From NCBI RefSeq assembly GCF_000026545.1, contig NC_011601.1: a DNA stretch of 64,000 bases. One strand, written 5' to 3'. How positions within the stretch are numbered: position 1 is the stretch's first letter; each line of letters begins with the position of its first letter. The stretch comes from Escherichia coli O127:H6 str. E2348/69 (GTDB taxonomy: Bacteria > Pseudomonadota > Gammaproteobacteria > Enterobacterales > Enterobacteriaceae). A program made the position numbers. Shown here piece by piece: positions 26,401 to 29,400 of this stretch.

Positions 26401-29400
26401 CCCAGACCCCGGAAATCCCACTCACCGGGGCCAGCCAACCGGCAGCCAGCGCGGCGAAAAACGCCCACACCATCCCGGAATAATTAACCGCTAGGCTTCT
26501 GATAAACCCCGATTTACCGCCGCCTGCGGCATAAAAACTGCAAAAGGCGACGAAGCCAATGGTTCCTAATAATTCCCATCCCTGAGAGAGCCCGACATGT
26601 GAAGACACTAACTGCCAAAGCCCTGCACAAATACCGACGGTGACACCCGTTGCCGTGAGTCCGTTCATCTTGTTCCCCTCTGGTTAGACATGGACGAAAG
26701 CTACTCTTACATGTGCAGACTATAGAGAAATAAAACCTGATTGAGTGAAAGGGTATCGGGTCAAAGAAACAAATATTGCACTACCGCACACGGCGAAAAG
26801 ATTGTTGAACATCATTCAACAAAAAGGCGAAATACGGCGAATTAAATTTAAGCGGGTTCTTTTATCAGATTATCGTTGCTATTCTCAATTCATCGAAAAC
26901 AGCCACAAAAACCAGGTGAATGTGAATGACTATAAAAAATCTACCTGCAGACTATTTATTGGCTGCGCAACAGGGTGATATCGATAAAGTAAAAACCTGC
27001 CTTGCGCTGGGTGTCGATATTAATACCTGCGAACGTCAGGGGAAAACGGCAATTACGCTGGCAAGTTTATATCAGCAATATGCTTGCGTTCAGGCATTAA
27101 TTGACGCCGGAGCGAATATTAATAAACAAGATCATACCTGTTTAAATCCTTTTTTAATGAGCTGTCTGAACGATGATTTAACGCTACTACGAATTATTTT
27201 ACCGGCTAAACCCGATCTTAATTGCGTAACCCGTTTTGGCGGTGTCGGCCTGACGCCTGCCTGTGAAAAAGGCCATTTAAGTATTGTGAAAGAGCTTTTG
27301 GCGCATACGGAGATTAACGTTAACCAGACTAACCATGTTGGCTGGACACCGTTGCTGGAAGCGATTGTGCTTAACGATGGCGGGATTAAACAGCAGGCGA
27401 TTGTCCAGTTATTGCTGGAACACGGTGCCAGCCCGCATCTGACCGATAAATATGGCAAAACGCCGTTGGAACTGGCGCGGGAACGGGGCTTTGAAGAGAT
27501 TGCGCAGTTGCTGATCGCCGCAGGTGCATAAACCGGGAGGCTTGCTATCAACACACCAGAAAAACGGTGTGTGTGGGCGCTAACTGCGGATGCTGATTTT
27601 CTGGCGCAGCGGGGGCAAGGACAGGTTGAACAGGTCTTTGCCAGAGCGGTAAATATCGCACTCCCGGCTCGCCAGCAGTTGCTGACGCTGCTTTGTGAAG
27701 AGTACGACAATGCGCCAAACAGTTGTCGGTTGGCACTCACTCACTTTAATGGTCTGTTCCGGCATGGTGATAAGGTTCAGTTTGACGATCAAGGCATTAC
27801 GGTTGGTCAACATCATCATATAGAGATGAGTCATTGCCAGCGTTGGCTGTCCCCAACCTTGCAAATGACCGCTCTGAATTTTCACCTTATCGCCTGGCAA
27901 CAGTGGCACGACATTATTCATCAGCACCTGGGGGAAAATGAAACCCTGTTTAATTATCGCGGCGATAATCCGTTTTATCAGGCGTTAAATAAAGAACTAC
28001 ATATTAAACGACGGGCAGTTATTCAGGCCGTAAACGATAAACAAAATATCGCCGTAGCGGTCGCCAGTATGATGGGCTTAGGGATTGGCCTTACGCCATC
28101 AGCCGATGATTATCTGACCGGACTGGTACTTATTTTATTTATTTCCGGACATCCGGCGGAAAAATACAAAGAGGAATTTTATCTCGGTTTGCAACGCGGC
28201 AGAAATAATACCACGTTATTAAGTGCCATCACGCTGGAAGCCGCATTACAACAACGCTGCCGGGAAAATATTCATCGTTTTATTCACAACATTATTTATG
28301 ACATCCCTGGGAACGCAACTCAGGCAATAGAAAAAATTAAACATATTGGCTCCAGTTCCGGCTGCGACATGCTGTATGGCATGGCCGATGGTTGTGCGCT
28401 GAGCCAAACTTACGGAGGGAATTATGTCAGTTAAAATAGTCATTAAACCGAATACCTATTTTGATTCTGTCTCGCTGATGTCTATCTCCACGCGTGCAAA
28501 TAAACTCGACGGCGTCGAGCAGGCATTTGTGGCGATGGCGACCGAAATGAACAAAGGCGTGTTGAAGAATTTAGGACTGCTGACGCCGGAGCTGGAGCAA
28601 GCGAAAAACGGCGACCTGATGATTGTCATCAATGGTAAATCGGGTGTGGACAACGAGCAGTTGCTGGCGGAGATTGAAGAACTGTTCAACACCAAAGCGC
28701 AAAGCGGCTCGCACGAGGCGCGTTACGCCACTATTGCCAGCGCCAAAAAGCATATCCCGGAAAGTAACCTGGCAGTGATTTCGGTCAACGGTCTGTTTGC
28801 CGCTCGCGAAGCGCGTCAGGCGCTGCAAAATGACCTCAACGTGATGCTGTTTTCCGATAATGTCTCAGTTGAAGATGAACTGGCGCTCAAACAGTTGGCC
28901 CATGAAAAAGGGCTGCTGATGATGGGGCCAGACTGCGGCACGGCGATTATCAACGGCACGGCGCTCTGCTTTGGTAACGCCGTGCGTCGCGGCAACATCG
29001 GTATTGTTGGCGCATCTGGCACCGGCAGCCAGGAATTGAGCGTCCGTATCTATGAATTTGGTGGCGGCGTTTCACAACTGATCGGCACCGGCGGGCGCGA
29101 CCTGAGCGAGAAAATCGGTGGCCTGATGATGCTCGATGCCATCGGGATGCTGGAAAACGATCCGCAAACTGAAATCATTGTGCTTATCTCCAAACCGCCT
29201 GCGCCTGCGGTGGCCCGCAAAGTGCTGGAACGCGCACGCGCCTGCCGCAAGCCAGTGGTGGCCTGCTTCCTCGGTCGTGGCGAAACGCCAGTGGATGAGC
29301 AGGGGCTACAGTTTGCTCGCGGCAGCAAAGAGGCGGCATTGAAAGCGGTGATGCTCTCCGGCGTGAAACAAGAACATCTCGACCTGCATACGCTTAACCA

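Follow-up and report, generated by a model that had tools for sequence, protein, structure and literature searches.

The 257-bp spacer between yahC and yahD of Escherichia coli O127:H6 str. E2348/69 contains a perfect inverted repeat, and the question raised by this locus is which protein reads it. The spacer (26669-26925) was analyzed within a stretch of 64,000 nucleotides (assembly GCF_000026545.1, contig NC_011601.1), hereafter called the window, and all positions are those of the window. The preliminary description had proposed that the repeat, here called box 1, is a candidate operator of YahB, the LysR-type regulator encoded on the far side of yahC. Comparison of orthologous loci leaves little doubt that the palindrome is a functional protein-binding site, and makes it probable that it serves as the primary operator of YahB at the promoter of yahD-E-F-G-I-J. 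Box 1 is most likely, by its sequence and setting, a LysR recognition site, a well-known kind of element that is newly defined here for YahB.

Box 1, 26802..26822, no strand assigned: predicted recognition site (RBS) of high affinity for YahB, kept in 77 loci; consensus TTRTTRAA-N5-TTCAAYAA.

When the sequence was read again, the 8-5-8 palindrome was found exactly as it had been described, with TTGTTGAA at 26802-26809, CATCA at 26810-26814 and TTCAACAA at 26815-26822. The arms, which have an A at both flanks, cannot be extended. The T-N11-A character of LysR boxes that had been claimed for it is also present, at positions 5 and 17 of the 21-mer, and recurs in 56 of the 62 distinct orthologous sites considered below. 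Perfect inverted repeats with 8-nt arms and a spacer of 0-10 nt occur 30 times in the window, and only box 1 has a 5-nt spacer. When the 257-bp spacer was subjected to 5000 dinucleotide shuffles, such a repeat appeared in 3.9% of them, and one with a 5-nt spacer in 0.44%. A mismatch-tolerant search of the window for further copies of the palindrome returned box 1 itself only, a result that says nothing on chance. Taken from the window alone, box 1 is real but mildly unusual, suggestive rather than compelling. The case for it is made by its conservation and not by its improbability in the window.

Conservation was evaluated by scanning for relatives of YahB in one genome per species, which gave 80 loci with YahB proteins 79-99% identical, among them loci of Citrobacter, Kluyvera, Raoultella, Enterobacter, Leclercia, Lelliottia, Buttiauxella, Serratia, Atlantibacter, Trabulsiella, Yokenella, Providencia and one Aeromonas. 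The comparison set for box 1, to which the counts below refer, consisted of 77 loci with both yahB and yahD from about 20 genera, and it contained 62 distinct sites. The distance from the yahD start upstream to the best palindrome match was 104-124 bp, except in Atlantibacter and Providencia, where it was 147-189 bp, and the match had 0-4 arm mismatches to the window palindrome over 16 positions. The ortholog consensus is TTRTTRAA-N5-TTCAAYAA. The arm proximal to yahD is almost invariant, the spacer is A/T-rich but free in sequence, and the outer YTRT...AYAA bases are kept in 58 of the 62 distinct sites. Conservation of the palindrome in orthologous loci, the comparison on which the proposal stood or fell, therefore holds in all 77 loci and at a fixed distance to the yahD promoter elements. 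The DNA-binding domain of YahB is itself about 93% conserved, in line with the unchanged operator.

The possibility was considered that the repeat is a chance palindrome, or a DNA or RNA hairpin such as a cruciform, an attenuator or a terminator, and has no protein partner. The 30 in the window show that inverted repeats with 8-nt arms are common, and the DNA hairpin has a z-score of -3.0. The pattern of substitution in the arms, however, is not that of a hairpin. The degenerate positions, 3/19 and 6/16, are placed symmetrically, yet the changes are non-compensatory: positions 6/16 are G-C in 32 sites and A-C in 29, and positions 3/19 are G-C in 21, A-T in 4, A-C in 15 and G-T in 20. This argues for selection on each half-site as read by a protein rather than on pairing between the arms. 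Folding as RNA is weak (-6.8 kcal/mol, z = -1.68), and no T-run, terminator or Rfam match was found at box 1. Since the arms are moreover kept in about 20 genera at fixed spacing, an origin by chance or as a hairpin is effectively refuted.

Within the species, the yahC-yahD spacer was found in 5084 of 5426 complete E. coli genomes, 10 of the places being on plasmids. K-12-like strains are 98.1% identical to the window across it. Among five E. coli strains both arms of box 1 are invariant, and the dyad spacer holds two of the few polymorphisms, reading TATTA in K-12-like strains vs. CATCA in the window. Each of these two C/T differences independently adds one pair to the palindrome, and box 1 of the K-12-like strains is a perfect 10-1-10 palindrome of 21 bp, TTGTTGAATA-T-TATTCAACAA. 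The dyad spacer of E. albertii is TGATA, and E. whittamii has one arm change.

The link between the motif and YahB comes from gene order and from a second, related dyad, for which the following features are needed.

yahB, 25147..26079, minus strand: LysR-type transcriptional regulator, 310 aa in length and proposed as the cognate regulator; pdeL lies beyond it.
yahC, 26171..26668, minus strand: DUF1097 membrane protein, inserted in some lineages only between yahB and the control region.
Box 2, 26157..26177, minus strand: GTATTAAA-AGTTA-TTCAAAAA; candidate autoregulatory YahB site.
yahD, 26926-27531, plus strand: ankyrin protein, first gene of the presumed target operon.

In nearly every locus yahB is syntenic with yahD-E-F-G in this order. 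Where yahC is missing, as it is in most genera, yahB and yahD are direct divergent neighbours across a spacer of 320-420 bp; yahC is confined to Escherichia, Kluyvera, Raoultella, one Klebsiella, Pseudocitrobacter and a few others. Judged by this distribution, yahC is an insertion that splits an ancestral divergent pair of yahB and yahD. In the loci where it is inserted, box 1 remains with yahD and box 2 with yahB.

A position weight matrix (PWM) was built from the 62 distinct orthologous sites. Box 2, which in the window reads GTATTAAAAGTTATTCAAAAA, scored 16.7 bits, the second-best match in the 64 kb, and the next best reached 10.8. The site overlaps the stop codon of yahC, and its centre is 88 bp upstream of the yahB ATG. 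Sites of the same family, GTGTTAAA-N5-TTCAAAAC with the consensus GTGTTAAA-N5-kTTCAAAAC, are found upstream of yahB in about 71 of the 77 loci, with or without yahC. In the 250 bp upstream of yahB the density of PWM matches scoring 13 bits or more is 2.07 per kb, vs. 0.010 per kb in the 771 kb of remaining locus sequence, a difference of about 200-fold. In silico, nothing links the motif to YahB more strongly than the related dyads at the yahB and yahD promoters, an arrangement that an autoregulated LysR activator would be expected to show.

The position of box 2 suggests that it is an autoregulatory YahB site and that yahB is not merely the distal gene of a yahCB unit; it probably has its own promoter in the 91-bp gap between yahC and yahB. 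The location of box 1 between divergent yahCB and yahDEFG-IJ units, as proposed in the preliminary description, is thus correct in its placement but doubtful in treating yahCB as a single unit, and the site is anchored to yahD, not to yahC. A CRP-like sequence, TGTGA-N6-TCAAA, was observed about 30 bp upstream of box 2 in genomes of Citrobacter, Enterobacter and Leclercia without yahC. It is not found in Escherichia, where yahC occupies its place. The sequence hints at catabolite control of yahB.

Box 1 is part of a larger conserved module, whose blocks were read from an ungapped alignment of the 77 regions anchored on the dyad. This alignment was used because a regex-based count of the block C spacing was disturbed by T-run variants. 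Four conserved blocks were recognized, the dyad and the three listed here, in an indel-free module of about 115 bp.

Block A, 26776..26790, no strand assigned: TTGCAC-TACC-GCACA, upstream of box 1; consensus TTGCAC-N4-GCACA.
Block C, 26836..26863, plus strand: GGCGAAT-TAAA-TTTAAGCGGGTTCTTTT; consensus gATGAAT-N4-TTTAAGCGGaTTCTTTT; high column conservation; runs into the -35 region.
Block D, 26875..26887, plus strand: GTTGCTATTCTCA; extended -10-like TG-c-TATTCT, the predicted yahD -10.

The distance from the dyad centre to the start of the block D hexamer is exactly 68 bp in 65 of the 77 loci and 69 bp in 6, and the leader that follows, up to the yahD start codon, is free to vary in length and sequence. 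With block D taken as the -10 element, transcription is predicted to start at about 26892, which would place the dyad centre at about -80 and block C at about -56 to -29. As a -35 region TTCTTT is poor, and a scan of 26050-26950 for consensus sigma-70 promoters scored none. Both observations are consistent with an activator-dependent promoter. Furthermore, yahC-yahI (b0317-b0323 listed) had a baseMean of about 2-25 by RNA-seq in glucose M9 in the supplementary data of Gao et al. (PMC8464067). An operon that is nearly silent in glucose M9 also fits an activator-dependent promoter.

Block C holds a degenerate dyad core, TGAA-N5-TTTA (CGAA in E. coli), centred 32 bp, or about three helical turns, from box 1. 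When the PWM was applied at successive offsets, +32 was the best non-self position, with a mean of -5.5 bits vs. a background of -37.7 +/- 8.8, and the score reached 13.3 bits in Providencia. These values are suggestive only, and mark block C as a candidate low-affinity activation site (ABS). Block A is unlike the YahB box and is preceded by an A-rich tract. In 72 of the 77 loci, with or without yahC, exactly 35 bp separate the start of its TGCAC from the dyad centre. It matched no nameable motif when sigma-54, NtrC and CRP were considered, and it may be a second regulatory input.

The presence of promoter elements so close to the dyad raises the possibility that the arms are themselves core promoter elements, for example the -35-like TTGAAY of a divergent promoter. 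The hexamers TTGAAT and TTGAAC match TTGACA at 4 of 6 positions, and the genera without yahC have a CAAAAT hexamer at a distance of 17-18 bp on the strand that reads toward yahB. However, one hexamer cannot account for the two-fold symmetric conservation of 8-nt arms, CAAAAT is absent in Escherichia, and the promoter scan described above found nothing there. An operator that overlaps a divergent -35 element would in any case be compatible with binding by YahB, and the core promoter explanation is highly unlikely.

If box 1 is the YahB operator, the arrangement of the blocks suggests how it could work. One dimer of a YahB tetramer would occupy the dyad at about -80 from the predicted start, and the second dimer would contact the degenerate site in block C, near -48 to -35. 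Together with an inducer, YahB would then recruit RNA polymerase to an otherwise weak yahD promoter, acting as an activator rather than a repressor. The weaker box 2 would allow YahB to control its own synthesis.

Several observations weigh against YahB as the reader of box 1. The loci without yahC hold both boxes in one intergenic region, so the association of box 2 with yahB and not with yahD comes mainly from the yahC-containing lineages. For most genera the absolute PWM score of block C is poor. With a predicted centre at about -80, box 1 lies 10-15 bp upstream of the typical LysR recognition site at about -65, and the start used here is a predicted one. Block A is unexplained and could be the site of another regulator that also uses the dyad. 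Moreover, the sole published YahB experiment by chromatin immunoprecipitation with exonuclease treatment (ChIP-exo), performed with a C-terminally tagged YahB-8myc in glucose M9, gave no peak at yahC/yahD (PMC8464067, Dataset S4). The candidate operator has on its side the conservation in 77 loci, the divergence of yahB in most genera and the second box at yahB, and lacks a YahB ChIP-exo peak at the site. The three peaks that were obtained, at ygjD, nlpI and yhcC, had signal/noise ratios of 1.29-1.99 (PMC8464067). The negative result is weak and largely uninformative, because the experiment was near-empty and because there is a precedent, PunR, of binding that depends on an effector. A strong ChIP-exo peak listed near yahC was rejected as evidence, since it is a YfeC peak within the coding region of yahB, not at the palindrome; it covers K-12 334131-334162 (about 25750-25800 of the window), has a signal/noise ratio of 55.9 and is labelled 'yahC' in Gao et al. 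2021 (PMC8464067).

These observations were also considered as indications that the dyad is the operator of a regulator other than YahB, local or global and perhaps also reading block A, with YahB acting elsewhere or through block C. The missing YahB peak and the conserved block A at its rigid spacing of 35 bp would both be accommodated, and AT-rich TTGAA/TTCAA dyads resemble the half-sites of several families. However, no other regulator gene is consistently linked to the locus: by their layout, the open reading frames beyond yahB differ in size and orientation among Enterobacter, Citrobacter and Providencia. Furthermore, the related box follows the upstream region of yahB itself. A different regulator is for these reasons rather unlikely.

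Named candidates were compared with box 1 individually. The neighbouring LuxR-type regulator PdeL was rejected because pdeL is adjacent only in Escherichia and the dyad is conserved far beyond that genus. The consensus of FNR is TTGAT-N4-ATCAA, that of the ARG box TGAAT-N4-ATTCA and that of Cra TGAA-N4-TTCA; ArcA sites are direct repeats and not inverted ones. FNR is off by one base of spacing (TTGA-N7-TCAA here vs. N6), as are ArgR and Cra (TGAA-N5-TTCA here vs. N6 or N4). ArcA, which binds direct repeats, does not fit the inverted box 1.

A further candidate is MetR, which is itself a LysR-type regulator and binds tandem inverted repeats (PMC5002191). According to this proposal box 1 is a MetR site, and MetR regulates yahC/yahD. 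The MetR consensus is 5'-TGAAnnTnnTTCA-3' (PMC5002191), and the core of the E. coli site, TGAA-CA-T-CA-TTCA, fits it exactly in the window and in K-12, so that the 13-bp core is identical. The agreement does not extend to the orthologs, however. Only 6 of the 62 distinct sites fit TGAAnnTnnTTCA and 14 of the 62 fit TGAA-N5-TTCA; about half of the orthologs have A in place of the G of TGAA. On either side the conserved information reaches 4 bp beyond the MetR core, into the outer bases noted above, which MetR does not need. The context is likewise unrelated to methionine: the flanking genes encode DUF1097, ankyrin, FdrA-like, DUF1116, carbamate kinase and amidohydrolase proteins, and the yah operon has no functional tie to methionine or homocysteine metabolism. 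By these counts the specificity of MetR is not what is conserved, and regulation by MetR is very improbable, slightly more so than the core promoter explanation. Occasional cross-binding of MetR may occur in E. coli.

YahB as the reader of box 1 agrees with what is known of its family. In generic LysR promoters, such as those controlled by CatR, BenM and CbnR, a strong upstream dyad (RBS), expected at about -55 to -80 from the target start, is combined with a weaker site (ABS) that reaches the -35 region, the -35 is poor, and the regulator is divergent and autoregulated. The yahD module shares this layout, with candidate or predicted elements in each place. Box 1 has the characteristics of a LysR box in that it is a dyad with T-N11-A, lies between the regulator and a divergent target in most of the 77 loci (with yahC between in the window), and has a related box at the promoter of the regulator. 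The module differs from the generic arrangement in the predicted position of the dyad (about -80 vs. about -65), in the 32-bp spacing of the sites, in the extra block A, and in the insertion of yahC in Escherichia.

The YahB protein scored best with the models of AllS (268 bits, cutoff 372) and PunR (239 bits, cutoff 345), below both cutoffs, which indicates a paralog of both and a member of neither. The operator of PunR (YdhB) is a 23-bp imperfect palindrome, TsttwTCAAwAwwwTTGaaGGCA, located between punR and punC (PMC8376909). It was first found by phylogenetic footprinting and was validated by ChIP-exo, by fluorescence polarization (FP) and by electrophoretic mobility shift assay (EMSA), and binding required adenine (PMC8376909). 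The PunR operator resembles box 1 in its short arms, 5-bp A/T-rich spacer, T-N11-A geometry and position between the regulator and a divergent target. However, its core is TCAA-N5-TTGA vs. TGAA-N5-TTCA here and the outer bases differ, so the consensus is not matched and the layout alone is common. In addition, PunR has a validated operator and a single transporter gene as its target, whereas the YahB operator is predicted and its presumed target is a multigene operon.

AllS, which controls the allD and allFGHK promoters of the allantoin regulon, activates allFGHK, which encodes an oxamic transcarbamylase and a carbamate kinase, by binding at -203/-144 from the allF ATG (PMC11326118, PMC12535856). 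The two systems are alike in pairing a paralogous regulator with a paralogous operon, the allFGHK genes being paralogs of yahF/yahG/yahE and yahI, and in the far-upstream position of the site. They differ in that allS is not adjacent and divergent to allF as yahB is to yahD, in that ArcA co-activation is known for allF, and in that the yah operon also has an ankyrin gene (yahD) and an amidohydrolase gene (yahJ). The best match to the YahB PWM in the allD-allF region scored 10.4 bits vs. 21.7 bits for the weakest training site. A YahB box of comparable grade is therefore lacking there, and the YahB-yah and AllS-all pairs appear to be insulated. No AllS motif could be derived from the allD-allF region, which is one sequence and contained no match to the YahB PWM.

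The presumed target of YahB comprises the following genes.

yahD-yahE-yahF(fdrA-like)-yahG-(REP gap)-yahI-yahJ, 26926..34061, plus strand: presumed target operon, in which REP denotes repetitive extragenic palindromic elements.

Its products include an ankyrin protein (YahD), FdrA-like and DUF1116 proteins, a carbamate kinase and an amidohydrolase (YahJ). A yahDEFGIJ operon was assumed previously (PMC4765031), and a listing of dense uncharacterised clusters in K-12 includes yahC-yahM (PMC11551758). A whole-word literature search returned no paper on the regulation of yahD-J, and no YahB operator, regulon or inducer was reported in the papers searched. YahB is one of the E. coli LysR regulators still uncharacterised, and the value of the operator is practical, not conceptual. 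The 21-bp site, box 2, the predicted promoter and the parallel with AllS/allFGHK provide a handle on the YahB regulon and on the substrate of the yah operon. They permit the design of an EMSA probe, of a reporter fusion and of an inducer screen with ureido and carbamoyl compounds under anaerobic, nitrogen-limited conditions.

A broader and decidedly tentative interpretation is that YahB, its two boxes and the four-block promoter form a self-contained catabolic module, apparently shared horizontally and paralogous to AllS-allFGHK. The module might encode a second pathway of three-subunit carbamoyl-transferase and carbamate kinase, which would yield ATP and ammonia from a ureido or carbamoyl compound sensed by YahB, with block A as a second input. 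If this were true, the operator, used in a reporter or a pull-down, would be a practical means to identify the substrate of the yah cluster, which is among the densest uncharacterised ones in E. coli.

Three further observations concern the surroundings of the module. Between E. coli and distant genera YahB is 81-84% identical (about 81% in Providencia, 84% in Aeromonas cavernicola) and YahG 86-87%, and these high identities suggest that the whole module has spread horizontally or is under very strong constraint. Between yahG and yahI, the gap of 330 bp (31390-31718) corresponds to the former 'yahH'. REP23/BIME repeats (BIME, bacterial interspersed mosaic element) are described as filling it, and in enterohaemorrhagic E. 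coli (EHEC) it is described as covered by ribosomes (PMC4765031, PMC11551758). The gap may set apart or attenuate the distal genes of the operon. Lastly, strain FDAARGOS_536, whose yahC-yahD spacer is 100% identical, carries ISEcp1 and IS1 just upstream of pdeL, where the window has betT.

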